A stretch of DNA of 30,666 nt from an uncultured Pseudomonadota bacterium (GCA_964645365.1 CAZXZM010000001.1:8677-39342), one strand, 5' to 3'; shown: positions 3,381-30,600, counted from the stretch's first letter. Made by a program: numbers and translations. The notes: a model not told the origin generated them from the sequence alone.

Positions 3381-3398
3381 CTGTCAATTATCTGACAG
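3381..3398. promoter_or_regulatory. Perfect dyad CTGTCA-N6-TGACAG (contains TGT-N10-ACA); candidate activator/enhancer binding site
   Basis: The inverted repeat is read directly from the sequence. It sits ~140-150 bp upstream of the predicted sigma54 start site. Confidence 0.5.
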
Positions 3399-3471
3399 AT
3401 AAAATTATCAAAATGATACTTAAAACATCCTTCTTGTATTTTCTGGGTCTTTGTTTAAAAAAACGCAATAA

Positions 3472-3484
3472 TATCAATTAGTTA
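3472..3484 (+). promoter_or_regulatory. IHF binding site candidate
   Basis: TATCAATTAGTTA matches WATCAANNNNTTR exactly. It is preceded by an A7 tract (3457-3463) in a strongly AT-rich intergenic region. Confidence 0.55.
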
Positions 3485-3507
3485 ATAATTTTATATTTCC
3501 AGTGAAA

Positions 3508-3522
3508 TGGCCTCTGCCTTGC
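3508..3522 (+). promoter_or_regulatory. sigma54 (RpoN) -24/-12 promoter candidate for the giant ORF
   Basis: TGGCCTCTGCCTTGC has TGGC and TTGC with exact GG-N10-GC spacing. The predicted start site is ~3534, about 21 nt before ATG 3555. Confidence 0.55.
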
Positions 3523-3554
3523 GGTACACTTCACAGTACAAACCCCCTCAATGA

Positions 3555-3671
3555 ATGGACCGGATTGGATTCAAAATACCCCTTTTTTTTCTCCTCCTCG
3601 TAGGGTTTGTCGTCCTGACCGGTCAGGAAAAATTCTCCGGCGGTGGCGGGTGTAGCTGCGGCGGCAAGAAG
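3555..3671 (+). other. N-terminal signal peptide followed by GGGGCSCGGKK motif
   Basis: Basic n-region (R3, K7), hydrophobic h-region (I8-L21), then TGQEKFS-GGGG-C33-S-C35-GGKK. Confidence 0.7.
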
Positions 3672-6600
3672 TCGGAAGAGGGAGAGATCGTCGGGCCCCC
3701 CACTGGCCCTGGAGCGGAGACCCCCTGCAAATTTGATAGCAACTGCAGCACCGGACAGATCTGTTCTGCTATTGGCAAGTGCACCGTACCGGCAGAATGT
3801 AGCCTTGATGTCGATTGTCCCGAGGCAAGTCAGATCTGTTCCAAGGGATCTTGCATCGAGAGTGGTGGGAGTTGTTCCGCCGACTCTGACTGTCCGGTCA
3901 ATCAAAGCTGCTCCGAGGAGAGCTGCGTTGGTGGGGGAACCAGCTGTTCTATCGCCGCTGATTGTCCCGATGGGCAGGCCTGCCGCGAAGAAATCTGCAG
4001 TGTCATTGGGGAGATTCCCTGCTCCCTCCATTCCGAATGCCCGCAAGGAGTTTATTGTTCGCTAGGAGAGTGCGCCCCCGGCCTCGATACCTGCACCACT
4101 TCGGAGGAATGCCAGGCGGGAACGATCTGCCTGAATGAAACCTGCGTCCCGACCGGCGGTGGATGCGATGAGCATAGCAATTGCGCGCTCGGTTCCTATT
4201 GTGAATCGGGAGACTGTGTTCCAGCCGGCCTCCCCTGCACCGCCCCCAATCAATGTCCGACTGAAACAACCTGCATCAATGGGGGATGTATCGAAGGGGG
4301 GGAAAGTTGTGACGAACATACCGACTGTCCCGAAGGGCAGAGCTGTCAAGACGGGACCTGTGCCATCGGTGCAGAAGATTGCACGATCGATGAAGAATGC
4401 GGCGTCGGCAATGAATGCATCAATGGTGTCTGTGTCACCGGTGAAGTCCCGCCGCTCGAAGATAATCAACCACCTCAATTTTTAAACCCCGGTAACAAAT
4501 CGGTCGTTGCCGAAGAGTCTTTGAGCTTTACATTGGAAGCGACTGATCCCGACAGCGATCCATTGCAGTTTGCAATGACCGGCCTGGAGGGAACCGGGGC
4601 CAATCTCGATGACGAAAATGGGGAATTTTCCTGGACACCAGCTATCGGTCAGGCCGGCAATATCTTCAATGTAATCTTTATCGTCAGTGATGGGACCGAA
4701 AGTGTCGAACAAATCATCACGATTGAAGTGCTCCCCCTCCTCCCGGTTGGCGAAGGGGTCGAAGGGGCCCTCATCGGTTATGCGGTCAATCCTGGTACAT
4801 GCGGTCTCTGGAATGAATTTTTTGAAGACGTTGGTGAAGGGGCCTACACGGGCCTCCTCTATGACCTCACCCAACCCTGTACCGGTACCGTCAATACCTT
4901 TCTCGTCGATGGACCGACAACCAATGCAACCAATAACCTTTCGGTTATTTTGCTGCCGGCCGCCACACTCCCGGAAATTCGCGGGATCGTCCAAGGGGAT
5001 CAAGATGTCGATGATACCCCCCGCGTTTATCAAGGAAGTCCCTCCCTGCAACTCTATGCCCAGGTGACCAATGCCCAAGGGCAACCTGTCGGGGCCAATA
5101 CACCGGTCGCCGTCGATCTGTTGATTGCGGATATCTCCAAGGCTTCGGCTGCTGGGATCTATCAAGCCGGGGGGATCTTCCGAGCGAACCTGGCGGTTCC
5201 CCCGGCTGAATTTCAAGGCGGTGCCGATGTCGACGCCGAGGTGCGAATCGCGGCCGCCGGTCAAGTCATCACCACCCCGGTCCGCCTGAAGGCGCTCCCC
5301 CCTCCCCTTGTCTTGGGAGAGGGACAGGCTGGACTCGTCCTCCCGCAACAACGTTTCTTCGAAGGGCAAGAACTGACCGTGTCCATTCAGACCAATACTT
5401 TTCAGGCGAGTACTCCCCAAACGGTCGCCGGTTTTCAATTTACAGTACGATATGATGCCGACACCCTCGATTTTGTCGGGGTTGAAAAAGGCTTTCACGG
5501 CACCCGCTTCAACGATATCCAACACGTCACAAACGATATCGGTGGTGGCGAAAAGACCGTCACCTTTAATAGTATCCTCAATCAACAGGCCTCGACCGGG
5601 GCCCCGCCGGTTTCGGCGCCGGATGACCCCACCACACCAGCCGATGAACGTCTGATCGAACTCGCCACCCTCACCTTCCGGGCCAAGGTCGATGCCGACA
5701 CAACCGCTTCCTTTTCCGGTGTTAAAAACGAACTCCTAAAAGTGGCGGAAGGGGATACGGCATTAGGGGAACAAGGGGAAGAACTGATCATCGCCGACCA
5801 CGCCGGAGTTGACGACGGTTTGGATCCGACCGGTGAAGTCCAGCTCCTGCAGAAGGAATGGCGTGGCTTATTGAGTTGGCCCACAAATAATGTCCTGATC
5901 GATCGTTCCTGGGCCAATGCGGGCCTGAAGGCAACCGGACAGATTCAGGTGCGGGGGGTCCGTAACGATTCTTCCGGACTGATCGATGCAACCGGCGACG
6001 CGATTTTCGGCCCGGCCGTTCCCGACTTTATTCAATGGACCGCAGCTCCTGGATCCTTTGAAGCGAGTGCCACCGGTACTCAGGATATCACCGTAAACCA
6101 TGAGGGATTTTCCAATGACCTGCAGGTTCGCGTCTTTTACGCCGATCCCGCCGATATCTTTGCCGACACCGATCATGAAACCTTCGACACGACACTGAAC
6201 AAAATTGCAGGCACCGACGAATATCAAAATACCCAATTGCGGATTGTCTGGACCCCTTCCGGATTGCTCACTCCTGATGGGGAACCCTTAGAGATTAATC
6301 TTACTCCTCACCTCACCTTTTCTGAAAATGGAAGTGTCAGCTATGATGAAGCAACCGGGCTTGTCTCTGCGATTGCGCCGGGTGCCGGGAGTATCGAAGT
6401 GCAGGGAGCGGGGGGAAGCCTCCCCGATATCCCCTTTACCGTCTCCGACGACGAGGCCGCACTCGATCACCTGCAGGTGGCGACCGCGGCCAATCTCTTT
6501 TTACAGATCGGTAGCAATGGGAGCCCCCTTGACGATCCAATCCCGGTTCCCGCCACCGTTGGGACGACACAGGCCTCCCAGATCCATTCCTTTGTCACCA

Positions 6601-9600
6601 ATCAGTTCGAGTCGCTCGATCAAGAGGCCCCGATTACGGTCTGGGCCCATTTCACCGATGGGAAAAAATCTCTTTTTACCAATCGAGTCGATCTAACGAG
6701 TGACGACACGAATACCGTTGTGGTCGACGGAACCCGTTCGGTCGCTACGGGACATGGTTCCACCTTTGTCAATGCCAATCACCCCGCGACGGGGCAGACT
6801 GCGAAAGGGAGGATCGGCGTCACTCTCCCTGAAATTGATTCACTCACGATCACGACCGATCATCCACGGATTGCACGAAACGACAACGATCCTTCAGCGC
6901 TGCTACTGGGACTCCCCATCGAGACGCAGGCCCATGCCACCGTTAATTTTCAGGGGGGTGGAACCTGGGAGGCAACGACCGATGATCGCGCCACCTTCGA
7001 GGTGATCGAAAATAGCACACTCGCTTCGATCAATAATGATGGGGACATCACATCACTCAACGCCGGCGGCGGTCGTGTCAAGATCCGCGCCACGCTGCAA
7101 GATATTCCGAATCCTGGAGAAATCCTCACCGCAACCAAGACCTTTTGGGTGATGACCTTAAAGGATCTTGAGATCCGTACCTGCGAAGACTTTACTTATC
7201 CCACCGACGCCAATCAATTTACGCCAGCGATTGGCGGAAGTAGTTGCGTTGTCGACAGCACCTCGACCTACATTGAAGGAACGAATGATCGTCAGTGGAT
7301 GCGCCCAAGCATTGAGGGGATCTGGAGTGACGACACCCGTATTGATCTCCTCAATTTAGACCATGCTGACAATCTGCTCGAACACAATCTGGAATCAGCA
7401 GAAGCAAGCGGCCATTTTGACCTCCTCCATCCAGAGATGGGGCTGTGGCAGATCGCTCCTCATACCATTACGCCCGATGAAGGCTTTGCCCTGACTGCAG
7501 AGTATCCCCTCATCCCGGGACCGGACGTCGATATCTCCCATACCATTCACATTAACAACGATCGCGTCGAGATCACCCAACTCTATTTGCGCGGTACCGA
7601 TGGCATCTCCGGAGGAATGACCGATAGCGATGTCACCTTCAACGATACCTTTTCCGGTATCAAAGAGAGTGGCGTTACAAACTTGCGCGTTGTCGCCCAG
7701 ATGTCCGACGGCACACGGCGCCTAGTCGCCAGTGAAGGGGCCCAAAATACCACCACGGGGGGACCCTTGCTCTCCCTGGCACTGAACAACCAAGACCTTC
7801 CCCATCAGCCGGCCAGCGCCCCCAGCGATTATGCCAGCCTTGAAGATCCGATCGGCGGGGCGCTCATGATTCGTGGCAACGGCGGTGTCACCCTCACCGC
7901 CGATCTTTCGAATGATTCTGGAGATGACTATCCGGGGCAAGACTATGTGGTGGCGGCCAACCTGACACCGGCGACCGGCGATATGGACCTCGGAAGTGCG
8001 ACCGGTCGTTTTGTAAAGGTACTCGGTGATGAAGAGACGATCACTGTCCCGGTGCGCCTGAGTACCGGCGCTGAAAACCTTGCCGGCTTTCAGGTCAAGA
8101 TCCGCTACAACGCTGCTGTACTGTCGGCGCAGATTGCCGACATTGTGCCAGGCCCGCTCGCCGGTGAGGCACTGATCAGTAACGTCAATACTTACGCCCT
8201 TACTTCACTGGAGGCGGACGGCGACCCCAACCGCACCGGTGAAATCGTCTTGGTCGGAACCTTTTCACCGGGTCAAGAACCGACCGGCATCTCCGAAGTA
8301 GCCCGGGTCCGCCTTACCGCGCACAAGGGGGACACCCTCTATACCCAGATCACCGGAACGATCCATGCCCTGGTCAATCCGGCGCAAAATACGATCGGAC
8401 CCGTCATTCCAGACGGTGGACGGGTGATGATTGCCGGCTCCGGTTTTGTCGATCCGGGAGTGCTCGGTGACTGTAACGGCGATGGTTCCTTTAGCGTTGC
8501 CGACGTCGTCCACCTGCAACAAATGCTATTATCTTCCCCGGCCTTTAGTGTCGAATGTAATTACACCCAAACAGATTCCCACCTAAATCTCGAGGATGCC
8601 TTCCGTGGCATGCAGATCCTGGCGGGGCTGTTTCATTTTGTCACCACAACTGTCACCGATCTCGGCAATGGCATCTATAAGGTCGATGTCCTACTGCAAG
8701 ATGCCGCCGGCAACCCGGTCACCGACAGCCCGCACCACCAGGTGCGGCTCACGATCGGCTCGATCGAAAACCCGGCCATCAACGGAACCTATCTTGCCAC
8801 GCACGAAGCGAACGGTCATTATACATTTACGTTGCCGGCGTTGACTTATAATGGACAACTTTCGGTCGCGGTCCGCCTGGCGATCTTGGATGATCAAGAT
8901 CCCCCGCATGAAAAAAATGCGGTTCAATTGGGGACACAAAACTTTGCGGCAATCGGATCGGGCGACACCGATAATCCTTGTGATACGGTTACCTGTCCGG
9001 TGGGACTCGCCTGCGACCCCGATAATCTAAACTGTGTCGATCTGTGCGACGGGATCTCTTGCCCGACAGAGGGAGAGGTATGCGATCCGGCCAGTGGGAA
9101 TTGTGTCGACGATGTGATCGATCACTGCGCCGGTGTCTCGTGCGACCCCGACCTCACTTGCAATCCGGCCAGTGGTGAATGTCAGGGGGGGTGTACCGAT
9201 GATAGTGACTGCCCCGCCGGACAGGCCTGCCACAGCACACTTCTTCAATGTGAAAATGACTCCGATGGCGACGGCGACCCCGACTCGGAAGATGAAGATG
9301 ATGACGGAGATGGCATCCCGGATGATGAAGACCCCTGCCCCACCGACCCACTCAATCTCTGCGTCGAAGGACCGACCGACTGTGTTGACGATAGCGATTG
9401 CCCGGTCGACTTTGTCTGCAACGACATCGAACATGTCTGCGAGCCTTCGGCGCTTGTCAACGAAGCCCCCTTCTTTCCGGTGAGCCCAACCGACAAAGAG
9501 GTAATCGGTGGCAACACGTTGACCTTTACGATCGAGGCAATCGATCCGGAGGGGGAAGAGCTCCTCTACTTCATGGATACTTCAAATGATATCGATTGCA

Positions 9601-12600
9601 TTGGACTCGGGTTAGAGATTCCAGTCGAGGTTTTCGATGAAACGACTGGTGAATTTTCCTGGGAGACGACCGTTGCCGACATCTGTGACCACACCGTGAC
9701 CTTCATCGCCTCCGATGGCATCAATGAAACAGAAGCAACGGTTGAGATCCGGGTCCTCCCCGATCCCGGCGACATCATCGACCCGCTCGATCTGGTCCGC
9801 GGGGCTCGGGTCGATTTTGAATCGAATCCGGGGCTCTGGACCGGCGATTGGTGGCGGGAAGAGATCGGCAATGACAATGGTTACTACGATGGTCATCTGA
9901 TCCGGTTGGCAAAACCGGGAAATGGCTCCATCACCGCCCGTCTCACTGGCGGCGATCCGGAACCAAATCAATCGCAAAATATCGCGATCGCCGGAGAACC
10001 GGCGCGTGCATTTTTGATTACCAACCGGAATGAGGTCTTTGCGGAAGACGCGCAGGTGGGAGCCTTTGCCTTTGTTACCGATAGCCAAGGGCGACCCATA
10101 GCGAATACCACGGTCACTTTTACGGTGGGAGCCAATTCTTTTGCAGCCAATCCCGTTCCTACTGAAACCGGAATCTATTACCGCTCTCTGACCCTCACCG
10201 GAACCAGCAGCATTACCTTGCAAGTTGCCGGGGTTGCCGAACAACCGTCACAAGATATCACATTTGTTCCCAATGCCACTCCTTTAAATCTTCCGGACGA
10301 GCGAGTGGGGATCCCCCTGCCACAGCGAAAACTCTACGAGAATGAAAGCTTTACCGTTCCGGTTTTGGTCAATACCGGCACCAAAAATCTGGTTGCCTTC
10401 CGGATCGCCCTCAATATTGGAACTGATTTTGAAGTCACCGCAATTGTGAAGGGAGCGGGAATCGACAGCGATGCCACCACCTTTGGAGCCTTGAGTACTA
10501 TTCCAACAACACTGCCAACCGATAATTCGATCACCTTCGGTTCTGCCTTAAGTCAAGGGGTGGCACCGCAAGGGACGGTTGAAGTCGCACGAGTCACCTT
10601 CCGTGCTAAAAGTGCGATTGCCAACCTTCCCAAGACAATCACCTTCACCGGCACCGCCCTCGAGTTGAAAGGGCAGACAACGAGTGGCGCGGAAGATATC
10701 CTGGCGGGGAATGGTCAACCGGTGCTGTTTGCCGACCATACCGGAACGACCGATGCCAGTGGCGCGCTCCGTGTCGAACCAAACGCAGCGGAAGGGATCT
10801 TTGCCTATGCCTCGGAGCCCTATGTCTTGAATGCCACCCCGCTTCTCGCCTCCCCCGATGGAACGGGGAACGTCATTACAAAAGTAATCCACCGTCTCAG
10901 CGCCAATGCGGTCGAAACGCTCCCGGCCGCCAATGCGGACAGTTACGCCAGTAGCGATGACGGTGTCGTTACGATCGATGACAATGGGAATTATCAGGGA
11001 GTCGCAACCGGCGAAGCCAATCTTGAGATCAGCTATCAAAGCTTTGATTTTGACGAGATCGGTGTCGTTTCTTCAGTCATCTCCAATGATGAAATTGCCG
11101 TCGAGGCAAGCGACCTGATCCTCAATCTAATTACCGGAACCGATCCCCCCACTTATCAAACCGGTCAGGTCCATACCTATTGGGAAGTTCCGGACCGACA
11201 GCAGGCCAATGGCACACCGGTCCAAATCGATCTGACCGAATCGGCCTCCCTTTCTTACCTCTCCGATGGCTGCGTGACGCTTGATGCTGCCATCACCGGT
11301 CTCGTGAAAAACAATGTCGCCGTGGCAGCGGCTGACTGTGGAACGGTTACCGTTTCAAATGGTGCTGATGACCTCGCCACCCTCAATTTTTCGATCAGCG
11401 ACGAGACCAAAACACCGGAAGCTTTTATTACCGTCCCCGCCTGGGTTGGGATCCACGACGCCCCCGATGTCCCTGTTTTAGCAAGTAGCGAGCTAAATTA
11501 CAGTACGCAAACAACGACCGCGCGCGTCACCGATGTCTTTACCGAATACGAACAAGAGATCCCCCTCAGGGTCTCGCTGGAATTTGCCGATGATGGGGAT
11601 GTCCGGATGGAGGTGACCGAGGAGGCAACCGCTTTTTCAAGTGATGATGAAGCGATTGCCACCGTCGACGGAGCGACGAAGCAGGCCACCGGGCTTGCCT
11701 CAGGCATCACGACACTCCGCGCTTCTTATAATGATATCGAGGCGATCGGTCGTATCAAGGGGGACATCCCAATCCCCGACGTCAACATCAATGGTTGTGT
11801 CAACATCGCTCGAACGGCAGAGGATCCGGCGGCACTTCTCAAGGGGCTCGCAACGGAAAGCACGATTACCGTCACCCTTCCCAATGGGGATAACATCACC
11901 GATCAGCTCTCTTTTACGGTCAGTGCTGGCGCCGATGTCATTGAGGTCTTTGATGACAACAGCTACCGCAGCCTGGAAACGACCGGCGGCCCCTTCACGA
12001 TCACGATCGAAACCGACGGCTTTCTAGGGATCCCCAATCAGACCTGCACTGCCTTTGTGATGACGATTACCGACCTAGCGGCAGAAGCGACCGAAGATTA
12101 TGATTCCGGTAATTTTAATAACCGCGTTCCGGATAGTTACTACTCGCTGATCGAAGGAACTGCCCATCACCAACGGGGACGCTTGCTGATCGAGGCTACT
12201 TGGTCGGATGAGAGCACCAGCTTGATCGGACCGGATGAAGAGGCGCTCTTAAATTCGGTCGCCGGGGGTGATAATTTTAATTTCAGTGGTGACGATCATG
12301 TCGATCGCCTCCCCGTCGCTACCGCAGCGGCCGGCAGTTGGCCGACCGGTTACTGGCAACTGGTCCCGACCGCAGCACCCCACACCGACATCGTTACCGT
12401 GACCTTAGACGATATCGTTGCCGCTCCAATCACAACACAAAAGACGATTGCGACCGCTAATGACCGGACCAATGTCACCGATCTGATTATTCGTGGCTCC
12501 GCACCCACTATCTTAAACCATGTCCCCCGCTTTGAGACCTTTGATGCCACAATGGCCTTAGTTGCAGGGAACTCGAGTGATCTCAATGTCGATGCCCTCT

Positions 12601-15600
12601 TTGGTGGAGACCGGACCGATGCTACTGATGCCGCCGTCACCGGCAATCCCCGCTACCGGTTGGCAACGGAAGGGTCACAGACGATCGCTGATTTCTTAGT
12701 CACCAATGTCGTCGAAGAAAAATTCACCGGCCAACCCGATGCCCCCGATCTCCCCGCAACGGTGGAGGGGAATGGAACGGTCATCGCCACCCGGAATGGA
12801 GTCGACGTCGTCACCTGGACCTTAGATCCCGATCAAGATGCAACCTTGTCAAAAGAATATCGAGCCGCCGTTAATCTTAAACCGGGGGGCAAAGATGTCG
12901 ACCTCGGCGCGGAAACAGGGCGCTTCGTCAAAGTCTTCTCAAATGGTCAGACGATGTCACTGACCCTCAGCGCCAATACCGATGGGGAAGATCTTACCGG
13001 CTACGAAGTTCACCTCTTCTTTAATCCGGCGGTCCTGACGGTCGATCCTGATAGTCTGGCCAATGCCCCCGATGGAACCAGTGGGGTCAGCCTGATCGAT
13101 CATCCAACAGATACAAACCCTGATCTGCAACGCGAACTGATCCTGGCAGGAACAATCAATCTTCCCTATCCCAGCGGAACCGTCAATCTCGGGACACTCG
13201 ATTTTGTCGCCGACGGTGACAAGGACCATGCGATCACCCTCTTTACCGGTACCTCAAAACTGCCAACCGAAGAAGAACCGGGTGCAACGGCCAATCCACT
13301 GGTAGCCGCCTCCGGTTGGGTCGATCCGGCGCCATTCAAAAATTACTGCGCCGATGCAGCACTCTATGACATCAACGACGTCTCCTGTCTGCAGATCGAT
13401 GTCTTAAACGATGGCGCCAACGACGCTCTCGGTGACTACAACGCCAATGCCTTGGCAAATATGTACGATGTCTTCTTAGGGCTACAGATCGTTCTCAGAA
13501 AAAACCATTTCACCTCACTCGAACAACCGGCCCCGAATCAACTAGAAGTCCGCGTCGTCAACAACCAAGACGACCCGGTCACTACCGGCAGCGAGGTGAC
13601 ACTCACGATTGTCGACAATCAAACACCGGCCAATACCGTCACCTTCAATGATGGTTCCAATTCGGTTAGCGGTACTACGGTTGAAGATGCTGGCACGGGG
13701 TTATTTACCGCCCAGCTCAATCCGCTCCAACATAATGATATGGTCACCTTTAATGTTGGGCTGACAACGACGCTCGCCTCCGGAACCTATACCTTTTCTT
13801 ACGACCAACCCCTGGCGATCACCGGAACCGACGGCGATCTCACCTGCACTCTAGATGGCGGCGAGTGTGGTGAAGATCAACTCTGCGTCGATACCAATGC
13901 CGATGGAGTGGTCGATTCTTGTCATGGGGGGGATTCCTGCACCAGTGATCTTGAATGCACAAACGGCCAGATCTGCACCGACGGGACCTGTCAGGGAGGA
14001 GAGGTTTGCACCACCAATTCCGACTGCAGTGACAATCAGGTCTGTAGTGCCGGAAGCTGCACCGGTGGCAACGACTGCAGCGATGATGGCGACTGCTCTA
14101 CTGGACAACAGTGTGTCAACGAAACCTGTCAAGGGGGTGGCATTTGTACAACGGATGGTGACTGCGCCGGCGGTTCGGTCTGTGATCCCCTGCAGGGCCT
14201 GTGTCTCTTCCCCGACGGTGAGTGCGATAGCAATGAAGATTGTGTCGGGGATCAGGTCTGCGATCCCGCAACCAACGCCTGTAGCGATCCAGGGGGATCG
14301 TGCATTGCCGATATCTACTGTCCGGTTCCAGGCGAGATCTGTCTTGGCGGGACCTGCCAAGGGGGCGGGGGTTGCACCAACGATTCTGAGTGTCCCCTCG
14401 CCGAACAGAGCTGTGTCGACGGCACCTGTGAGGGGGGAGAAACCTGCGAGGAAGCGGCCGACTGTGGCGATCAACTCACCTGTTCCGCAGCAGGCACCTG
14501 TGTCCCGGATGAAGATAACGACGATGTCCCCGATGAGATCGATAATTGTCCGGGCCTTGCTAACCCAGGACAAGAAGATGGGGATGACGATGGGGTGGGC
14601 GATGCCTGTGACACCGACAATAGCTGTACGACCGATGAAGAGTGTCCCGCCGATCAGATCTGTAACACCGCTGCCGATAATCCCGAATGTGTGATCGGTC
14701 CCGATGGGGATGGGGATGGTGTCACCGATACCAAAGATAACTGCTCCGATGATTCAAACGCCGACCAGGCGGATGACGATCTCGACGGGATCGGCAATGA
14801 ATGCGACGATGAAATCTCCGGTGAACCGGTCTGGGGGGCGAAGCTGTCTGCACTCACCCAAAAGGTCCGGGCAGCGACCGGCGTTGACACGGTCGGCGAA
14901 TGGAAGGGTCACTTCGACGACCATCACTTCACAATAGGACCAGCAGAAGACGGAAACTACTCCAGTGAGCTCTTGAATTTGACCCCGGCGGGACAGGGGA
15001 AGACGCGCACTTCTGTTGAAGAGGGGCCACAGTCGAGCTTCCAAGGCTACGCGATCGCCCCGGCCCAGAGTGAACTGCAGCAAAAGACGACACGCGGCAC
15101 GGTCGCGGAAAACCTACCGGATACACTCTATAAGGCACAACGGCTGACCGCCGATCGACAGCCAGTAGCCACAGGACAAAGCCATAACTTTAGCCCGGGC
15201 AATGCCGCAGCCAATCCAGCAAGCGACACGACTGATGACAACGGCTTTGTGGAAAGTCTGCTCACCATTGCCGACGCCCAGTTCACCGGCCCTGCCGATG
15301 GGAATGCGGCAATCGGCACTGAAACGATTACCGCACGTGCCCGGCCGGCGGTCGCCGACTGTGGTGGAGATATCTGCATCTGGCTGGAGACCTCCTTCAT
15401 TCCGATCTTCCCGAATGGAAACCTTACCGTACCGATCGTACTGAACGCCGGGGCCGAAACGATCGACAACTTCGATGTCCAGATCGACTTCAACACGACT
15501 GATCTCGAATTTGTCGGGATCGAGAGCAGCCTCCCCAATTTTGTGAGCAACCCGAACCCGAATATTGATGGTTACTCCCGCTTTACCGCCTTTGACATTG

Positions 15601-18600: not shown

Positions 18601-21600
18601 CCGACAACGCCGATGGCAATATCGATGCCACCGCGGCACGCGTCACCTATCAAATTTCGGGAACCCCCTACACGGGGAACGAACTTGCCACTTTCTCAAG
18701 CAATGTTTTCGAAAAAATACTGACCGATCTCGACACAGCAGGAGACCTCGAGGTCATTGTTCAAGTGGAAGGATTGAGTGCTGGTGGCGATGTCCTCTGG
18801 AGCCATCACTATATGGGGACGCAACCGGTCCGGACCATTGCGATCAATCCGGGCGATCTCGATCCAGACGAAGATGAAGATGGGGATGGCGTCGATAATG
18901 GCACCGACAACTGTCCGTTTACTTTTAATCCAGGACAAGAAGATGGAAATGGCAATGACATCGGCGATGCGTGCGATGATTGTGCTCCAACACCTGATGG
19001 TGACGGGGATGGTGTCGGGGATGCGTGCGATAACTGTGCGGACATTCCGAATCTCGATCAGATCGATGAAGACCACGACGCGATCGGGAACGCCTGCGAC
19101 AACTGTCTTTCGATCTCCAACAACGATCAAGCAAACAGTAATGGCAACTTAATCGGCGATGCCTGCGAAGGCTTGGATCAGGATGACGACGGAGATGGAA
19201 TTCCGAATGGGGAAGACAACTGTCTGGATGTCGCCAATCCGGATCAGGACGATGGCGATGAAGATGGTATTGGTGATCTTTGTGAGTCGTGCACGCAAAC
19301 GAGTGAATGTGCGACTGGTCTCGTCTGTGTCGCCGGCACCTGCACCGACGAAGGGGGGAGCTGCACCCCCGAAACGGTCGACACCGACTGTGCCCCCGAT
19401 CAAATTTGTATCGACGGGGCCTGTGACGGCGGTGGGGCCTGTGACGATACGAGTGACTGTCCGCTCGGCGATCAGGTCTGTCATGAAGGGACCTGCGTCT
19501 CGCTCTGTCCCAATGGAACCCCGGCAATCGATGGTGAGTGCGAACCCTCAGAAACCGGGGCCCCCTCTTTTGTCGGGCTGACGAATGAGACGACACGTAT
19601 TGCTGGAGAAACGGTCGACATTACATTTACAGTCGAAGATCCCGACGGTCCCGATGAAACACTGGTTGAAATGAGTTCGGTCGAAGGGACCCCCGATCAT
19701 TCGACTTTCGCTACGATTCCGGATTTAGCAACACACACAACCGAGGGGCATCTGGTCTGGACAACCGTCCTCGAAGATATCGGTGACTATCATCTCACCT
19801 TTACGGCTACCGATGACGATGGTCACGAAACCCTCGCCACCTTGACGATCCATGTCATTGAAAATCCGGCCCTCGGGGGGCTACCGGTGGTCGGTGCCAA
19901 GGTGAGTTTTGATTCCGATCCCTCGACAATGGCCCGCTGGGAGGAACGGTGGTGGGATCAAGAAACCGCTGCAGACGGTCAATACATCGGTCCCTTTGGT
20001 GGTCTCTTCCAGACCGGCTCCTTTGACCTGTTGGGACAAATCGATGGAAGCCTCTTCCAGGCTGACAGCGCCGAAGTCCTACGCGATCAACGTGAAGTGA
20101 CGATCAACGAGACACCAACCAATGGTTTCTTGATTGCGGCAACACCGGAGGTCTTTCAGGAAGAAGCCGATGGCAGTGGTGAAGCGCAAATCTTCGCCTT
20201 CTTAACCGATGCACTTGGGCGTCCGTATGACGATGAGGATTTCACCGTCACGGTAACAGGAGCGGGGGGTGCGAATGCCACCCTCACCCACCTCGATACC
20301 GAAGAAGGGGTCTATGGAGGGAGCATCACTCTTCCCGCTGGGCAGTTCCCGAACGACGACTACGAATTAACACTGACCGCGCCGGTCTTAGCCGGTCCGC
20401 CAGCGACGTTACTCGATCTGGTGACCTACAGTGCTCCACCGAACATTCCAGATGAGTTCCTGCGTGCCGAACTGCCGCAAGGTAAATTTGCCCCCAATGA
20501 AATCTTTGACGTACCGGTCTATGTTAATGCCGGTGGTTCGAACCTGGCGAGCTTTACCCTAACCGTTAATTTCGATGATCGCCTCGAACTCATTGATAAT
20601 AGCGGTTTCAAAGTCACCGCCGGTCCCGGCATCGATCCGATCAACAACGGCACCTTAACGATCAATCCTGATTCGGTCACCTTCACCGGAACGATCGGTG
20701 CCACTGCAGCTCCCATCACCGGCCTTCACGCCCTAGTCACGACCCTCCATTTCCGTGTCAAGAGCGATGCCGTCTTGCCGAGCGATGTGGTCACCACCTT
20801 TATGAGTGGAACAATCGCTAGCGCCCAGGCGAAGGTCGGCTCCGGTTTTGAGGACCTCGATTCCAACGGGGAGGATCTCCTCCTGTCTGATCACACCGGC
20901 ACGAGTGATGCCGATGGAGACCTGCGCTTGATCCCCGATGCGATGCAGGGTTTCTTTGCCTACGCGTCGCTTCCGGTCCTGATGCACGATGTCGCACCGG
21001 GTAACGATCCCTTAGCGACCGAATCGGGTTCTCTGATCACACGCGTTGTCTACCACTCCAGCAGCGATGAGTTGGGAGAGATTCCAGTAGGGGCTACCGT
21101 TGTCTATCATTCAGGCGATAGCGGTATTGTGGCATTTGAGGATGCCAGTGAACGTTTTTATCACGCCGTATCGACCGACACGACGACGATCGATGTCACG
21201 ATCGATGGAGAAACATCAGCGCCAACAACGGTCCGGGCAATCGCACCAGCCATTGAAGATTTTCATATTGAACTGGGAGATACGACCTTAAGCAAGATCA
21301 GCGGCGGCGATGATTTTCAGACCACACAAGGCCATCTGGTCTGGACCGTCCCGGGAGTCACCCGACCGGACGGCACCACCCCCTTGACCTTTGACTTAAG
21401 TGCGAAGATCAAACAATGGAACCTCACGGAGGCCACCGTAGGCGTTGTTACCGTCGTTGACGATGATGGAATGGTCACTGTCGATCCGACGAGTGAATCG
21501 GGGAGTGTCACCCTGCAGGCAATCGGCGAAGGCCCCACGAGTGAGGCTGGTGACGATGAAATCATCACTGAACGAACGATCGCCATCGATGCCGACACTC

Positions 21601-24600
21601 CAGTGGCGGTCTCCGATCTGATCATCGCCGTCCCCGCCTCCGTCCTGATGACCGAGGATCCAACCCTCCATGCCGATCTCCAAAATATGGGGACTGCCAC
21701 GGCAATGATCTATGCCACCAACGCCTTCACCAAATATGGACGTGAGGCTCCGATCACTTACTGGGCGCTGTTTGGTGAAACAGTTGATCACGATGACGAC
21801 CCCGCGACGGCACCGATCGAGGTCCGGATGCCGCTAACGGGAGATGATCTCGATGCAGACTTAGCCATTGACGAAGTGAGCGGCCAACAACTCTTTGATG
21901 AAACATTCATCAGCGACAATAACAATAACAAACTGAAAGTGACCGCCGCCTGCCCGACCGGCGAGGAGGCTACCTGTGATACGAATGTCAACGCGACCTA
22001 CCGCGGTACAACTTATTCGACCCCACTCTATGTCGCGATCATCGCCCCCGATGTCGATATCATCGGCGACACCCTCCTCGCCCGTTCGGCGGACGACTTA
22101 AGTGCCACACTCTATAACCCACCGCTGCCGGTCAGTACCCAACTCGAAATTCAGAATCATGAAACGGAACAAGATATCACCAGTCACTTCAGTTTTTCGA
22201 TCGCGCCGGAACAGCAAAACATTGCCACGACGACACCGGAAGGCTTGGTGACGGCCGATGCAGCCGGCCCCGGCGGTGAAGTGACCGTCACAATCCACAA
22301 TGAAGATGGTTTCTTAGGGATTCTCGATCAGACTTACGTCATCCAGGTTATTACCTTAGAATCACTCACGCCCGAGGTTTACGAAGACTACGATCCGGCG
22401 ACACGCCCCGGCTACAATCCGGCCACCGGTGAAAAATTTGCGAGTGCCCACTCCGAAACTGTCCTGCAACTCGTCGAACAAGGAGGCGATAAATGGCAGC
22501 AGGCCCGCCTCTGCTTAAAGGGAACCTGGAACAACGGCGTTACTTTTTATCTTGACGATGCTGCGGTGGTTCTCAATGAAGTCTCCGGAGAAGGACTGAG
22601 TGGTGACCTGGAAATTGAGATTCCAGGGGTCTTTTCACTGGAAGCAACCGACGCAAATCCCGATTCGAATTGGCCCGGCTGTTGGCGTGTCACGACCGAT
22701 TCGGCGACTGCCGATCCCTTTACAGTATCGCTCACCGGTGATTCGGTCGCGGAAGACTTTAACGATATTGCGATCACACTCACCGCCGATGCTACCGATG
22801 GCAACCACGTTCAGGTGGATGACCTTGAGATCCGCGGCCGCGGTGGAATCAATAACCAAACGGTCGACATCGCCTCCGACACCGGAATGCTTTCTGCCGA
22901 TGCAACCTTTAAGGCGACCGTTGATTCAACCGCCAATCTCTGGATCAAATCAACCTTCAGCGACAATGCCCGCTTTGTCTTAGTCGATGATAATGATCAG
23001 GTCTTTGACGGTTTTGTCCTCTTTAATGACTTTGCCGAGATCCCACTCCCGAACCCGGCTCCCGCGGCAGCCCCCTCGGCAACGATCAGTGTCGATGGCC
23101 AATTGAGAATCGATGCCAACGGGGCGGTTGGAATGACAGTTGCACTCGCCGCAGATTTAGCTCCGGCCTACAGTCGTCCTCATCGAATCGCCAATAATCT
23201 GCTCCCTACAAATGACGGCGATGTCGATATCGGTCCGACAACCGGTCGCTTTATGCCGGTCTTAGGGGGTGCCCCGATCCCGATCCGGATCAATGTCGGT
23301 GCCGGTTCCTTTGATACGACAACGATTGAAATTGATTATGACCCGCGGGTCTTGCTCTTCAATACCGCAAGCTACACTCCGGCTGCGAATATTGCCTGGA
23401 TTCCAAAAAATGAGCCGACCAGCGTAGAGACGATGACAACGGCAACAGATGCTCCCTGCCCTGCAGACCCGAGTGATCCCTGCGAAGCGACCTTTACGTT
23501 GACCGCCTGGTCTACCGCCGCTTCCGCTCCGACTGGCACGATCACACTTGGAACAATTCAGGTAATCGGCCGCAAATTCCCAGGCCACACCGTCACCGAA
23601 CTGACCGGTAACGCCACCACATCGCTGGCCGATGCCACCGAAGTCACCAAAGATCCAATCGTTGCTGGAACTGGTTGGGTCGATCCCCCCGGACTGAAAG
23701 ACTATGCTAATGCTGACGGTCTCCATACTCCCGGTGACGTCACGCAGCTCTTGATCGACATTAATAATCCAGCCATTGGCGGAACTGGGGTCAGTGATCT
23801 TCCCGACGGACATGGGGGATGGCTCGGTGATTACGATGACAGTGGAACGGCCAATGCCTCCGATGTTCTGCTGGGGCGTCAGATCCTATCGAGTTGGTTC
23901 TATTTCCACGATATCACGACGACCGGCGGCGACGGGAACTACACCCTGAATATCCAGTTGCTCAATAAAAACAATGTAGCGATCACCACGGGAACAACGG
24001 TCACAGTCGATGTCACGAATATGAATCCGCTCAATACGGTTCTCTTCGACGGAGCGGCCTCAGCCACAATGACCCCCGATGATCCATTTACGATCCCGAT
24101 GACGGTCACCTACAACGACAGCATCACCCTCCGCTTTGAGCTGGCGGTCGATGTCGGTGGTAGCACCGGAACAAATTCCACTTATGTCTATCGCACGCTG
24201 AGCTTTGATGGTTCTTCCGGCAATCCCCCCTTATGTCCCGAGGACAAAGAGTATTGCGCCGATTTCGATCAATGCTGCGACAGCGGCTGTGGCGATGCCG
24301 GTAGTTGTGTCGATGTCATCTGCCCAGCCGGACAACAACTGGTGGGCGATGGTTGTGTCCCGATCCCCTGTGCTGGTAACGACGACTGCCCCTACAATGC
24401 CACCTGCAGCAGCGGGGTCTGTATCGATGTCTGTGATGAATCGATCGCTCCTGCGTGTTCCGATGGCGAGAGCTGTCAACCGGGACCGGGTCATACCGGC
24501 ATCTGTGACGATCCCTGCTCTGGCGTCGTCTGTAGCGGTGATCTCACCTGTCAGGTTATCGATGAGGAACTGCAGTGTTGTGATGCCGACGGAGACAATT

Positions 24601-27600
24601 GCGAAGAGATCGTCTGTGGGATGGGACTGGTCGCACTCGATGACGATCAAGATGGAACGATCGATCAGTGCGGCACCTGTATCGAAGATACTGTTTATAA
24701 TGAGACGACCCATCAGTGCGAACCGTATGAACCGTGTGGTGTAAACGAGGTCTTTGTCGACGGTCTCTGTTGTGACGAAGCCATCCCCTTTGTGGTCGAC
24801 GGCCAGTGTTGTGACAGCGCCGATGGCCTTGGAGCTTGCGAAGGGAGCGAGTGCCCCGAAGGGCAAAGTTATAACGAAGATGCAGAGTCCTGCCAGTGTC
24901 CCGATGGCTCGACACCAGCGGAGGGTCCCTGCCCCCTCAATACCGATCCGGTCTTCATGCAACCGGCCCTGACAACCTATTCGGTCTTGCCGGATCAAGT
25001 GGTCAACTTTGTGGTCAACGCCTTTGATTCCGATGGAGATACGATCGTCTATTCGATGTCCGAAAACGATCCATTACTGATTCCAGACGAATCGTTTGAT
25101 CCGGACACCGGCATTTTCAACTGGACCGCGACCGACGCGGCGATCGGTAATCACACCCTTGAGTTTACCGCCCAGGACGTCAATCCCGACGGCGATCCGA
25201 TCGGTGACGGAACGATACGGACGGTCACGATTCAAGTCACCGACGGTACGGTGGCGGGTGAAGCGGTCTTTGGTGCCCACGTCGTCTTCACCACAGTCCG
25301 TGATGATGGATTTGCAAAAGGACGGTGGGACGGCATCTGGTGGGAAGACGACGGAACGCCTGACGGTCACTATACCGGGCACCTGCTCGACCTCGCCTTC
25401 CCCGGCACGGAAAGTATTGGAGCCCAGGCCCTGGAAGGGATAACGACCGAAACAAATGCACTCGACATTATCCTGAATAGCGACGCAACACGAGGACATC
25501 TCGTCTTGGCACGAAATGATGTCTATCCCGACGATTCGATGCTATCGGTCTATGCCCTCGTTACCGATGATTTTGGTCGCCCCTATCATGGAAATGCGGT
25601 GATTACTGTCGAAACGGCTGGACATGGCTCGGAGACACTCACCAAGGCTCCCGGAAAACCGGGAATCTACGAAGGTTTGTTAACGCTGAATGGCTTTGAT
25701 GCCGTCGATCAACCGATTACCGCCATACTAAAAGCGGGTGGCGTAACCCTCTTGAATACAGCTGGAGCAGCGGACGAAGAACAGGCACTGACACTGAAGG
25801 AAACGGTTGAAGACTTAAATCTGGTTGCTGGACACGCCGGTCTCCAGATTCCGAAACGCCCCTATTCCCCGAATGAAACCTTCGACGTTCCCCTTTACAT
25901 CGATACCAATGGGCTCGGCCTCTTCTCTTTCAGTATCGATGTCACCTTCGATAGTTCCCGGGTCGAGTTCACCGGCAACAAGATCACGTTGGTTGCCGGT
26001 TTTGATCCGATCAACCCGGCGACCCTCCATGCTGAAACCGATACAATTACACTGCTCTCCGGTTCCGCCTCGAATCAATTGGTCGGTGCCGGCAAGCAAC
26101 TCCTCGGCACACTCCACTTCAGAGTCAGAAATGGTGCCGCGATCGCACCGGTCAACTTTTCCGGCACCGCCACAGAGCTCTTTTACAGTGCGAGTGGAGC
26201 CCAGACCCCGCTCGCAGGTCATGGACAGGCACTGCAGCTTGCCGACGGGGGCGGAAACGGGAGCGGAGACTTGGCCTTGGTCGGTACCGAACTCCGCGGC
26301 ATTCTGGCCCATGCCAAAGACAGTCAATTGTTCGGTACTGTTCTCGGTGGACTGTCGCTTCCGAACGATCTGACCCAATCCTCAATCCAGCTCTATAAGG
26401 TTGAAAATAACGGCACCTTAAGCCTGGTGGCCGCTGGCTCCGCTACTTGCAATGACACGGCCGATAAGGTCAGTGACGCCTGTGTTAATTTCGCTGCCAC
26501 TACTGAAGGAATCGCCATCCTCGAAGTCGAATACAGTGAACATGGCGGAACCAAAACGATCGACAATCTCCAGGTGCAGGTCGACTGGATCGAGGGGAAC
26601 TCTATCGACGCGGGAGGGGATATTGAACTGGCCACCGATGACAGCGATGGGACAATTAAAAAGCTGGGCGGAACCGATAGCTATCCGAAGGTCCACACTC
26701 ATGCGATCTGGCATCGCGGCGATGGGGTCCGCCTTGATCTGACATCTCATACTACGCTGACCAGCACAGATAATGCGGTCTTCACTGTCAGCGATGGCAT
26801 CATTACGGTCCAAGGAACTGGCTCCGCCAATCTGGAAGGACTCGGCGCCAACCTCCCCTTAACGGTCGTCGATGAAATAGAAGATTTTAATATCGAAGTG
26901 GCTGTGCCCGCTCACGTCGCGATGGAGAGCGTCACTACACCGGTCAACCTCGCTGGAATCGATACCGACGGACGTGGCACTAGCGAGGTGATCGCCTCGG
27001 TCGTCAATACCTTCACCCATCTCGATGATGAGGCGCCAGTCACCGTCAGTGCCATTTCCGTCGACGGCAGCCGTTTTGATATCACTGATGAAGTGATTGC
27101 GGCCGAGGGCCTAAGTATCGGTGATGATAGTTTGGTCGATTTCAAGGCAGACGATTCCAATATCGTCATTCCGAAGACAACGGGCGAGCATACGACGACC
27201 GTCACGGCAGAATATGCCAGCAAACTTCCAGTGAGTTCGAATGTCCATCTCAACATCACCGCCCCACCGACGACATTGAATGGCTGTGAGCCAGTCGCGC
27301 GAAGCAATGATGATGCTTCAGCCAAGGTCTTGGGGCTCCCGATCTCCCGCGAACTCAGCGTCACTTATAATGGTGGGGCCGATACGATCCCGACAGGGAA
27401 CATTAACTTTGTCGTCACCTCGGGGTCTGAACTCGTTAAAACAACGGAGGTCGAAGGATCGCAACAACTTGAAGACAACAATATTGTCGAGGTCGAAGAC
27501 GATCTCGATACCGGCGGCATTGTTGTCATCGAACTCGAAGTCAACTACTTAGGTTTCCCGAATCAAGTCTGTACGCTTCCGGTCATGACCTTAACGGGAC

Positions 27601-30600
27601 TTTCGGCCTCGACCTATGAAGACTACGACCCGGCCGATCTTCCCCACTATACAGCTGCCGATGGAATCTTTGCCGCAACCGTCGCAGACAACACGATTTC
27701 AAAGATCGAGGGACAGGTAGCTGAATGGCAGCGAGTGCGTCTGGTGATCGAAGGGACCTGGACCGATGGAACGAGCACTTACTTAGGGCCGGTCCAGAGA
27801 GATCAGATCGGAGGCGATTTTGAGATCACACTTCCTGATGCCAATTACGGCCAAGGAGATGTCTTTGATGAAAACTCCGATGATGGAGCGTCTCCTTCCG
27901 GTTGGCCAGGCTCTTACCGATTGACCGCCACAGCAGGGGCGAGCTCAGGGGACATTACGGTTGGTGTCGCTGAACCTTCGGCCACTTCGACACTCGATCC
28001 GGCGACCCACGACATGACCTTTGAAAATAGCGCGACGACCTTTAATCCGGCCGGCACGATCGTCCGGGGTGAACATACCGGAATTGGTAACGGTCTCGAG
28101 GTAGGGATCGATAATGTTCAGGTTGGTGTCATCAATGGCGACGAGGATTTCGATGCGACCCTGATGGGCTTTGCCGGAACGGCTTACCCCTTGACTGTCG
28201 TCGGTCAGTTTACCGATGGAGAACGGATGATTGTGGCGAGCGAGACTAGTAATGTCACCGGCACAGACCTCGTCACCTTTGAGGTGGAAGAGCTCGAACC
28301 ACCGCAGATGGCGGCTGTTGACCTCCCCGCCTCGGTCGCGGTCGATGCCGACGGCAATATCACCCCGAGCGCCAATGGCGCGGTTCGAATCCCCATCAAG
28401 GTCGCCACCACCGAATCGGCCTTAAAAGAATATGATCTCATCTCCAATCTCCATCCAGTCGAAGAAGATCTGGATATCGGCCCGACTGCTGGTCGCTTTG
28501 TTCCGGTCTTGAGTGGAGGTGGGGCTCAACCGACCTTGGCCGTCCGGGTCAATACCGGTGCCGGTAACATCAGTATCTTTGAGTTTGCCTTGAACTACAA
28601 CCCGCAGGTGGTCACCTTTGATGTCGCGGGGATCTCCGGACCGACCGGCTTTACTGTCGAGGCGAATATCGATCCGCCGGATGCCCAGACCGCGGGGGGT
28701 ATCGATAGTGCCCAGTTACTGGTCAGCGGTTCCTATGTCGGTGCGGCCAAGAGTGGCATTGTCACGATTGCAACGATCCCAATCGCCAGTGCCCCCAAGG
28801 GTGGTGATGGTTACTTTGAACTGACCGGTTCGGCAACCACGGTCGTCGATAACGGGGGGCTGACAACGCTCTCAACACCAGAAGTCACCGCAGCAAAGGG
28901 ATGGGTCGATCCTGGCGGTATCAAGAACTATGCCGATGAATCGGGTGAAGGAACCTATGGTCCGTACGATATCGCCCGCCTGAAACAGGATATCATTGCA
29001 GGGATTCAGGCACCATTAGTCGATCAGTATTCCAACGCTCCCGCGACCGAACTGCTAGGTGACTACAATGGTGGGGGCATACAACCGGGCAATCCTGCCG
29101 ATGCCCCGAAAGCGGATTCCTTCGATACCGGTCTGGCGCTCCAAATCAACACCCTCAAATTTCACTTTACCTATCTGACACTGACACCGACCGGAGCAAC
29201 CGGACACTACCTCTTCCGTGCGCACCTCTTTGACAAAACGGGGACCGCGACCTGTGCCAATGGAATCGAATTTGATCATTACGATGTGGGGGTACCCGGA
29301 AATACGATCCTCTTTGACGATGCCATACCGGCCTGTACCGAAACGCTCGCCGAAAAGTATTATGAAGCCGAAGTGACCGTCGCTTACGACGCCACAATCG
29401 GCCTCAAGGCAACGGTGACCACAGAAACCGCAACCGGTTCGAATCCGATTGCCGTCCTCGGCCGTTTTACCGTCCAAGGGGAAGAGGGGGTCCTACCGGT
29501 TTGCCTCGAAGGAACCACTTACTGTGCCGCTTCGGATCAGTGCTGTGAAGGGGCGGATGAAGATATTTGTGGGGGAAGCTGTAGCGATCCGATCTGTCCG
29601 GTCGGCTATGAAATCGACCCGGCCACCGATATCTGTGTCCCGACAACTTGCGTCAATGACAATCAGTGCCCCTTCGATGCCCAATGCACCGACGGGTTCT
29701 GCACCGACGTCTGTGACGGGGTCACCTGCGGTGATGGTGAGTCCTGTTATCCGACCGGTAACCACAATTCTGACTGTGGCGATCCTTGTGAAGATGTGAT
29801 CTGTGCCGCCGACTTTGAATGTGAATTGGTTGGGGATCAGGCAGAGTGCTGCGATGAAGACAACAACTGTAATGAGATCGATAACTGCGAACCGGGAACC
29901 TTCTTGATCGATGATGATCACGACGGCCTCTTTGATCGCTGCGGCATCTGCTCGGAAGGAACTGAATACAATGTCGCCACGGGACAGTGTCTGCCGGAGG
30001 CTTGTGAACAAGCAGCCGATTGTGCCGGCAATGAGACCTGTGATCTTGTTTCCGGTGATTGTATCCCCTGCCCGCCGGGCCAGATCCGTGATCCGGCCAA
30101 CGACAATGCCTGTATTGCCTGTCCCGACGACAGTGATCCAGCCTGTTCACTCGCCTGTCCCGAAGGAACGAGCTGGAACAACAACATCAACGCCTGTGCG
30201 TCTGAGTGCGAAGCGAATGAGCCCTTGTTACTACCGGATGGTTCCTGTGCCAGCTGTCCTGCAGGACACATCTACGACCCAAGCGAAAATAAATGTAAGT
30301 ATATCTTCTGCGAAGAAGACGAAATCGATCCGGGTAACGAAACTCTCAATGAAGCGCTTGATCAAAACCAACTCGAATTGTCGGTCGATTACACCACGTT
30401 GGCCGCAAAACTAAATGCCTTTGAAAACCGCACAATCTTCTTTGTCGCCCCGAATGGCAGCGACACGATTCCGGGAGATCCAGGGGGAGGTGCCACCGAG
30501 GAAGAAGAGACCGCCTATGAAGAAGGTCTGCTCCGCGGCACAGTCGATAAGCCACTCGCCTCAGTCGCTAAGGCACTGGAACTGATCGAGGCCAAGGGGG

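Follow-up and report, generated by a model that had tools for sequence, protein, structure and literature searches.

What kind of protein is encoded in a bacterial reading frame of more than 9,000 codons, and is that frame, as an earlier note on the sequence had proposed, a five-fold super-repeat of units of about 5 kb with a conserved domain order? The frame lies in a 30,666-nucleotide stretch of an uncultured Pseudomonadota bacterium (GCA_964645365.1, CAZXZM010000001.1:8677–39342; hereafter the window, from whose first letter all positions are counted). It runs for 9,037 stop-free codons in one frame up to the end of the window, which is also the end of contig C1 in the source genome, so that the protein is C-terminally incomplete. 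The source is a metagenome-assembled genome (MAG) of 1.64 Mb in 193 contigs with 80% completeness; metagenomes of several studies (marine, seawater and hydrothermal vent) contain near-identical sequence. The protein consists of five collinear units, each of about 1,600–1,750 amino acids (aa), and collinear unit-length diagonals together with domain profiles bear out the super-repeat and its domain order. The frame and its units, of which some carry a He_PIG immunoglobulin (Ig) domain, are as follows.

3555–30665, + strand: single open frame (P0001), more than 9,037 codons, stop-free, exiting at the contig and window end
4380–9464, + strand: unit 1 (aa 276–1970), type alpha, with He_PIG Ig domain
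9468–14306, + strand: unit 2 (aa 1972–3584), type beta, the unit whose structure was modelled
14616–19367, + strand: unit 3 (aa 3688–5271), divergent type delta, no He_PIG, 37.8% identical to unit 5 of relative G031
19419–24614, + strand: unit 4 (aa 5289–7020), type gamma
24804–29837, + strand: unit 5 (aa 7084–8761), type gamma, 43–44% identical to unit 4 of relative G017 and 38–40% to unit 6 of G031

Self-comparison of the protein by BLASTP, run in 400-aa chunks (an undivided whole-protein run returned the identity match only), gave collinear diagonals of about 1,700 aa with 24–37% identity among units 1, 2, 4 and 5, at offsets of about 1640, 5040, 6830, 3400, 5170 and 1760 aa, rather than short local matches only. 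For unit 3 the BLASTP match is limited to the last ~460 aa. A profile built from units 1, 2, 4 and 5 aligns unbroken along it (profile positions 98–1602 to aa 3753–5225, independent E-value 4e-28), and because this alignment forms one stretch, unit 3 is, judged by its sequence, a full yet divergent copy without the first (He_PIG) Ig domain. In type it is divergent and shorter than the other four. Between whole units of the protein, pairwise identity is 19–31%. The anchor motif D[MVL]D[LI]G stands exactly where it had been placed, at nucleotides 7980, 12894, 17838, 23220 and 28467 (gaps of 4914, 4944, 5382 and 5247), and G[WFE][VL]DP precedes every dockerin-like module, at nucleotides 8442, 13314, 18324, 23673 and 28899. 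In the 9,037 aa each motif is present five times and no more, against means of 0.18 and 0.08, respectively, in 2,000 shuffles, of which none held more than 2. Family profiles locate each of the three modules, cohesin A, cohesin B and dockerin, exactly five times in the protein and reproduce the cohesin A positions that the earlier note had named.

Each unit is composed of about 13 domains: an optional He_PIG domain, a six-domain module resembling TMEM132, a BIG-like domain followed by two β domains, a cohesin B–dockerin pair and an Ig domain. Pfam scans of the protein list He_PIG, Big_1-like, Big_2, Cohesin, TSP_3 and DUF7107. AlphaFold2 models of unit 2 were obtained for the N-terminal half (aa 1991–2753), with a predicted local distance difference test score (pLDDT) of 87.4 and a predicted template modelling score (pTM) of 0.82, and for the C-terminal half (aa 2743–3443; pLDDT 85.8, pTM 0.70); strand patterns delimit seven and six domains in them, respectively. 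The C-terminal half is ordered as a BIG-like domain, two β domains (approximately model residues 106–365), cohesin B, a two-helix dockerin and an Ig domain. Positions of the cohesin and dockerin modules are as follows.

5286–5891, + strand: cohesin A of unit 1, Pfam and family profile
10260–10823, + strand: cohesin A of unit 2, family profile
15330–15845, + strand: cohesin A of unit 3, Pfam and family profile
20418–20972, + strand: cohesin A of unit 4, family profile
25791–26327, + strand: cohesin A of unit 5, family profile
7941–8402, + strand: cohesin B of unit 1, begins at the DMDLG anchor
12852–13286, + strand: cohesin B of unit 2, modelled fold matches solved cohesins (Z 13.2)
17796–18287, + strand: cohesin B of unit 3, Pfam and family profile
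23178–23645, + strand: cohesin B of unit 4, family profile
28425–28865, + strand: cohesin B of unit 5, family profile
8427–8672, + strand: dockerin of unit 1, fused straight to cohesin B at the G-x-x-D-P junction
13296–13538, + strand: dockerin of unit 2, two helices in the model
18306–18560, + strand: dockerin of unit 3, the module in the complex prediction
23655–23933, + strand: dockerin of unit 4, family profile
28884–29195, + strand: dockerin of unit 5, family profile

Deep profiles built from 40–44 family segments connect these modules to solved structures. The cohesin A profile matches solved cohesins at an E-value of 8.5e-8; in the cohesin B–dockerin profile, positions 37–133 match solved cohesins (E 1.6e-6) and positions 171–235 match solved dockerins over their full length (E 2.3e-8 to 1e-5; e.g. 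1ohz_B residues 1–58 and 4fl4_A). The cohesin A and cohesin B profiles are mutually homologous (hhalign 95%). A five-row cohesin A profile of the window's own copies found no match among solved structures, so that the deeper family profile was needed, and the five-copy dockerin profile of the window ranked dockerins at the top but with an E-value of 0.008. Pfam Cohesin (PF00963) matches units 1 and 3, with two stretches in each, and 22 of 44 and 22 of 41 family segments; Pfam Dockerin_1 (PF00404) matches three of 41. The modelled cohesin B of unit 2 (residues 369–519) has solved cohesins for all of its top 13 structure matches (Z 13.2 to 10.4), with root-mean-square deviations of 2.6–3.6 Å over about 130 aligned residues, apart from one two-module entry aligned over 214 residues with a deviation of 16.9 Å. 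Two other candidates were set aside: generic multi-Ig chains (NUP210, S-layer proteins and cadherins) were the only Foldseek matches in the PDB for the 701-residue C-terminal half, in which a full VIA search resolved the cohesin, and a match to a 'teneurin-like protein' (9ifo, E 2e-26) covers only N-terminal BIG2 adhesion domains and not the teneurin core. The family dockerin consensus contains both EF-hand-like Ca2+ loops (D-x-N-x-D-G-x-x-x-x-x-D). As read from the alignment, each window dockerin has at least one good loop, with an insertion in one loop of unit 5. Cohesin B and dockerin are fused without a linker in all five units.

In the model of unit 2, the front half of the unit matches the ectodomain of TMEM132 both in domain order and in predicted shape, and the corresponding module is delimited here.

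9735–11813, + strand: TMEM132-ectodomain-like module of unit 2 (aa 2061–2753): Trp-rich, Ig, cohesin A, three BIG domains

Searched against the AlphaFold models of Swiss-Prot, the N-terminal half model has TMEM132 proteins of human, mouse, rat, zebrafish and C. elegans for all of its top 13 matches (E 1e-29 to 8e-25), and the first match of another kind follows at 1e-18 with a far lower TM-score. The alignment with TMEM132A–E pairs model residues 71–763 with residues ~21–832, which is the whole ectodomain. Among the clusters of the AlphaFold database (2.3 million), the top two are TMEM132. In three structure libraries TMEM132 is the nearest match by a wide margin. In the third, the ESM Atlas, the match is a mostly haptophyte cluster that carries the TMEM132 fourth domain (422 residues, TM-score by hit 0.67), and since it matches the unit 2 module, the TMEM132-like module may be spread more widely among eukaryotes than the holozoans. 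This cluster numbers 161 proteins and matches cohesin A and the three BIG domains of unit 2. Single-cassette bacterial relatives match the Pfam TMEM132 fourth domain at 27.7–53.3 bits (cut-off 27), with the fifth and sixth domains in the same order behind the cohesin, both below their cut-offs. The window's five units match no Pfam TMEM132 model at E-values up to 1, and sequence identity to TMEM132 is 10–14%. Two distant single-cassette relatives, P0041 (L021 8001–13328) and P0040, which carry 'Dictyostelium repeat' Cys-rich modules, match the fourth domain at 53 bits; P0041 sits on a compact, prokaryotic-looking contig.

TMEM132 proteins have been described as a conserved region followed by a cohesin and then by three BIG domains, are said to be of holozoan origin and have no dockerin partner detectable in vertebrates (Sanchez-Pulido and Ponting, 2017, PMC6030884); a literature search found no paper reporting a bacterial counterpart. 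The cassette differs from TMEM132 in being repeated five times in one chain and in the second cohesin and the dockerin that come after the module. TMEM132 itself ends in a C-terminal single-pass membrane helix and a cytoplasmic tail that carries PP1 and WIRS motifs and links to actin, whereas complete bacterial relatives end in a β-helix and have no such tail.

Is the cassette peculiar to this gene? A profile spanning cohesin A through dockerin found it in nine of 93 genomes of the class (seven of 24 families) and in neither of two genomes of the same family. One relative (G017) encodes a complete protein of 9,605 aa with five units and a DUF1565/β-helix tail, a second (G031) one of 12,063 aa with six units, and a third (G023) one of 12,806 aa with five or six. 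Word-index homologue searches with the giant and with a single unit gave no matches, but an exhaustive HMMER search of 1.84 billion representative proteins did, as the genome searches had: its 389 matches at E-values up to 0.001 include proteins with one, two, three and four units. A one-unit protein (P0007) and a two-unit protein (P0008) have the same Cys-rich or thrombospondin type 3 (TSP3) head and the same DUF1565/β-helix tail, and the family plan is a head, n cassettes and a β-helix tail, with n from 1 to 6 in the genomes compared. A syntenic locus is common to G017, G031, G024 and the two-unit P0008 (L009/L010, L011–L013, L017, L019), with a flavoprotein gene (PF02441) on one side and genes for a Zn-dependent phospholipase C (PF00882) and UDG on the other; because these flanking genes are shared, one locus carries two, five or six units. 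The window gene has a different flank, with other genes upstream.

In trees that include every unit, the grouping follows unit type across genomes and not genome. Unit 1 joins the first units of G017 and G031 (support 0.99), unit 2 joins G031 unit 4 (0.99), unit 3 joins G031 unit 5 (1.0) and unit 5 joins G017 unit 4 and G031 unit 6 (1.0). Identity is 42.9% between unit 5 and G017 unit 4 and 37.8% between unit 3 and G031 unit 5, compared with at most 31% to their closest own paralogues; units 2 and 4 have each other as nearest unit (31%), with every foreign unit further off, and unit 1 is a borderline case. All five units are paralogues of ancient date that fall into distinct types, and for at least two of them other genomes contain orthologues. 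Since units 3 and 5 are closer to foreign units but units 2 and 4 closest to each other, part of the array predates the split of the families, and another part may be younger or have evolved faster. The order of unit types differs between genomes, which indicates that whole cassettes have been gained, lost or moved.

These comparisons bear on the proposal of an old duplication that has been preserved at the protein level. The units share 38–46% nucleotide identity, and the proportion of synonymous differences (pS) is 0.70–0.76, which is saturated and supports the proposal, as does the closer relation of units 3 and 5 to units in genomes of other families (38–43%) than to their own paralogues. 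The age holds overall, but not all of the duplications need be equally old, given that units 2 and 4 are mutually nearest. Because dS is saturated, the ratio of nonsynonymous to synonymous substitution rates (dN/dS) between units is not interpretable and no estimate is given.

The five units are bracketed by six Cys-rich stretches (L0–L5), and the remaining parts of the protein are its two ends.

3555–3674, + strand: hydrophobic signal-like N-terminal segment followed by a GGGGCSC motif; N-terminal motif kept in the G017 and G024 relatives
3705–4454, + strand: head linker L0 (aa 51–300), Cys-rich DUF7107/Dickkopf_N-like knots
8955–9404, + strand: linker L1 (aa 1801–1950), Cys-rich
13755–14804, + strand: linker L2 (aa 3401–3750), Cys-rich and acidic Asp-rich, with a Pfam DUF7107 match within
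18855–19604, + strand: linker L3 (aa 5101–5350), TSP3 and Cys-rich
24255–25004, + strand: linker L4 (aa 6901–7150), Cys-rich
29505–30404, + strand: linker L5 (aa 8651–8950), Cys-rich
30405–30665, + strand: start of the tail domain, truncated by the contig end; complete relatives have DUF1565/right-handed β-helix at the same position

By analogy with related proteins that keep the same head and β-helix tail, including the 9,605-aa protein of G017, the full-length window protein is probably about 9,600 aa long. A motif of the GGGGCSC type (a Gly run followed by C-x-C) also lies near the start of the G031 protein, and in the G023 protein one is found at the extreme C-terminus instead; such a motif may work from either end of the protein as a signal for sorting or attachment. 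TSP3-like repeats that are 38–52% identical to the unit 3/4 linker are found on two other contigs of the source genome, C39 (1667–1951) and C102 (1502–2017), without any cassette domain.

What would such a protein do? We infer, with a probability of about 0.5, that the giant is a self-associating surface adhesion fibre and not an enzyme scaffold. The protein would be exported and, as a guess, held to the cell by its N-terminus. It is acidic overall (Asp + Glu 15.6%, Lys + Arg 3.7%) and rich in TSP3 repeats and Cys knots, which suggests an extracellular chain extending as a surface fibre probably stiffened by Ca2+ and disulfide bonds. The number of cassettes would set the length and valency of the fibre, and the β-helix at the far tip might serve as a binding or cleaving domain. 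The most likely partners of its five dockerins would be the ten cohesins, on the same copy or on neighbouring ones, since searches of these genomes turned up no further cohesin or dockerin genes: family cohesin A, cohesin B and dockerin profiles match nothing else in the source genome (80% complete), where Pfam Dockerin_1 also finds nothing, and in three relatives that are 95–100% complete the cohesin B–dockerin profile matches nothing beyond the giant gene. Such pairing would interlock the molecules as a mesh on the surface or make cells adhere homophilically, and would not recruit enzymes. A complex prediction for cohesin A of unit 3 with the cohesin B–dockerin pair is consistent with this, at a weak score of 0.34 (best control 0.00; the mark applied is passed by 58 of 80 solved complexes and by two of 110 mismatched pairs), and places the predicted cohesin A interface on the dockerin helices.

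Several observations weigh against an adhesion fibre of this kind. The patchy distribution of the cassette in the class (nine of 93 genomes) means that it is dispensable for the lineage. None of the window copies reaches the Pfam Dockerin_1 threshold, and the alignment, as read here, suggests that the dockerins of units 1, 2 and 4 each have one degenerate Ca2+ loop. Passing the mark with a score of 0.60 or under was seen in only seven of the 80 solved complexes and in both of the mismatched pairs that pass, and the complex score may reflect the model's memory of solved cohesin–dockerin pairs. Client proteins could be missing from a genome that is 80% complete, the C-terminus of the protein is absent, and the roles given above to the N-terminus and the β-helix tip are guesses.

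The alternative that survives best, possible although we consider it less probable, is that the cassettes form a passive stalk, a long rigid spacer that holds the β-helix tip far from the cell, with the cohesin B–dockerin pair locked within the chain or vestigial and conferring stiffness instead of intermolecular assembly. The linker-free fusion of this pair in five of five units would suit such a role, as would the fixed inter-domain packing suggested by pTM values of 0.70 and 0.82, the degenerate state of some Ca2+ loops and the retention of head and tail in relatives with one, two, five and six cassettes, as if only length varied. The unit types are, however, individually conserved across genomes (38–43%), which points to type-specific functions rather than to a generic spacer; each unit also has a second cohesin without a partner in cis, and the weak complex prediction puts cohesin A on the dockerin helices.

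A cellulosome-like scaffoldin, in which the ten cohesins recruit dockerin-bearing enzymes or other clients to the cell surface, is unlikely. Many cohesins do lie on one chain, as in the scaffoldins of Clostridium thermocellum (CipA) and Acetivibrio cellulolyticus (ScaA/ScaB), which likewise carry one or more dockerins per secreted chain and whose solved cohesin and dockerin structures match the single window modules best in sequence and fold, and the incompleteness of the source genome leaves room for clients. Unlike scaffoldins, the window protein spaces its cohesins about 850 aa apart by Ig domains and not by short linkers, and Pfam scans of the whole protein at E-values up to 1 list no carbohydrate-binding module (CBM), S-layer homology (SLH) domain, sortase signal or glycoside hydrolase. 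With no dockerin or cohesin found beyond the giant gene by the profile and Pfam searches described above, and no CBM, SLH or enzyme domain, an enzyme scaffold would be left without clients. Non-cellulosomal cohesin–dockerin proteins are known (Peer et al., 2009, as cited in PMC9012536), and those of anaerobic methanotrophic (ANME) archaea, with a dockerin and up to five cohesins on one chain and no cellulolytic enzymes (PMC9012536), lend the scaffoldin idea some support. The window protein resembles these in having several cohesins and a dockerin per chain and no cellulose-degrading enzymes, but its modules stand inside a fixed 13-domain cassette with two cohesins to one dockerin and up to six cassettes, and no further dockerin protein was found in the genomes searched here.

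Finally, although the contig belongs to a fragmented MAG (193 contigs) and a few low-depth public contigs have odd joints inside the gene, it is most improbable that metagenome assembly misjoined paralogous genes or strain variants, or that the frame is open by chance, because the units are only 38–46% identical in nucleotides with no long DNA-level repeat, contigs of at least 99% identity from runs of two studies tile nucleotides 8000–27999, contigs X1–X3 (from runs of one study) span three of the four unit junctions (nucleotides 9522, 14622 and 24612), the contigs that carry complete five- and six-unit orthologues measure 275 kb and 396 kb, and that of a related giant of five or six units 907 kb, and chance cannot yield 9,037 stop-free codons. 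In a DNA self-comparison of the gene the only matches are three short ones, all in linkers, and there is therefore no repeat able to mislead an assembler. The odd joints, which appear in a side table only and outside the supported joints, connect 14586 to 19090 with 15 other letters between (depth 2–5), which would skip nearly exactly unit 3, and 18327 to 21444 with eight letters between; they may come from strain variants that have fewer units or be artefacts of the assembly graph. We accordingly rank the adhesion fibre above the passive stalk, with the scaffoldin and an assembly artefact well behind.

Three genes precede the giant gene, and no link between them and it was noticed. They encode the end of a proton-antiporter/NuoN-like membrane protein (2–787, + strand), an SprT-like protein on the opposite strand (784–1260, − strand) and a protein of 691 aa whose central part is a spermidine-synthase-like domain (1283–3358, + strand). 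A simple sigma-70 scan of the intergenic region 3381–3534 gave one weak promoter-like site at 3392–3420, and a scan of the same region gave no terminator.

How does the cassette compare with other very long proteins? Ordered multi-domain super-repeats exist in titin. Like titin and the classical giant adhesins, the window protein is a very long chain of β-sandwich domains, and the adhesins likewise act at the cell surface. Such adhesins include SiiE with 53 BIg domains (PMC6272769) and a Mobiluncus adhesin of 51 domains (PMC10619420). In contrast to these, the repeat here is a heterogeneous 13-domain cassette about 15 times the length of a BIg repeat, and its single copies are conserved from genus to genus; the literature search yielded no bacterial adhesin described as having repeats on such a scale. 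The suggestion that the unit is unusual beside adhesin repeats of ~100 aa is thus upheld as to its size and domain order, but the cassette is not peculiar to the window gene and is present in one to six copies across the family. The 'Dockerin-type giant proteins' of uncultured Omnitrophota are also predicted to be extracellular and combine dockerins with TSP3 Ca2+-binding repeats, and a role in attachment has been proposed for them; they exceed 30,000 aa and contain ~200-aa CBM35-like barrels flanked by dockerin-like helices as well as enzyme domains (West-Roberts et al., bioRxiv 10.1101/2023.11.21.568195). They share giant size, predicted extracellular location, dockerin with TSP3 and an uncultured bacterial host with the window protein but belong to another phylum and are set apart by their description, the available text of which mentions neither a 1,650-aa cassette nor a TMEM132-like module; the unit 2 models show no CBM35-like barrel–helix repeat.

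The finding introduces a 13-domain cassette of ~1,650 residues as the repeat of a structural protein, counted one to six times, in some cases at a syntenic locus. Tentatively, and with less confidence than in the adhesion fibre itself, we suggest that the animal/holozoan TMEM132 (coherin) cassette could have a bacterial counterpart, possibly its origin, that is still coupled to the missing partner, a dockerin, that entire cassettes of distinct types could serve as exchangeable modules, and that type-specific pairs could direct in-register self-assembly of megadalton fibres. If it is true that this cohesin–dockerin system has no clients, it would extend these modules from enzyme recruitment to self-assembly. 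In humans, TMEM132 proteins are neural adhesion proteins that are little understood and have been linked to hearing loss and panic disorder, and no dockerin partner is known for their cohesin. A bacterial homologue of the TMEM132 ectodomain that stands beside a dockerin would be a tractable model for what the TMEM132 cohesin binds, and the bacterial cassette bears on where the TMEM132 architecture came from.

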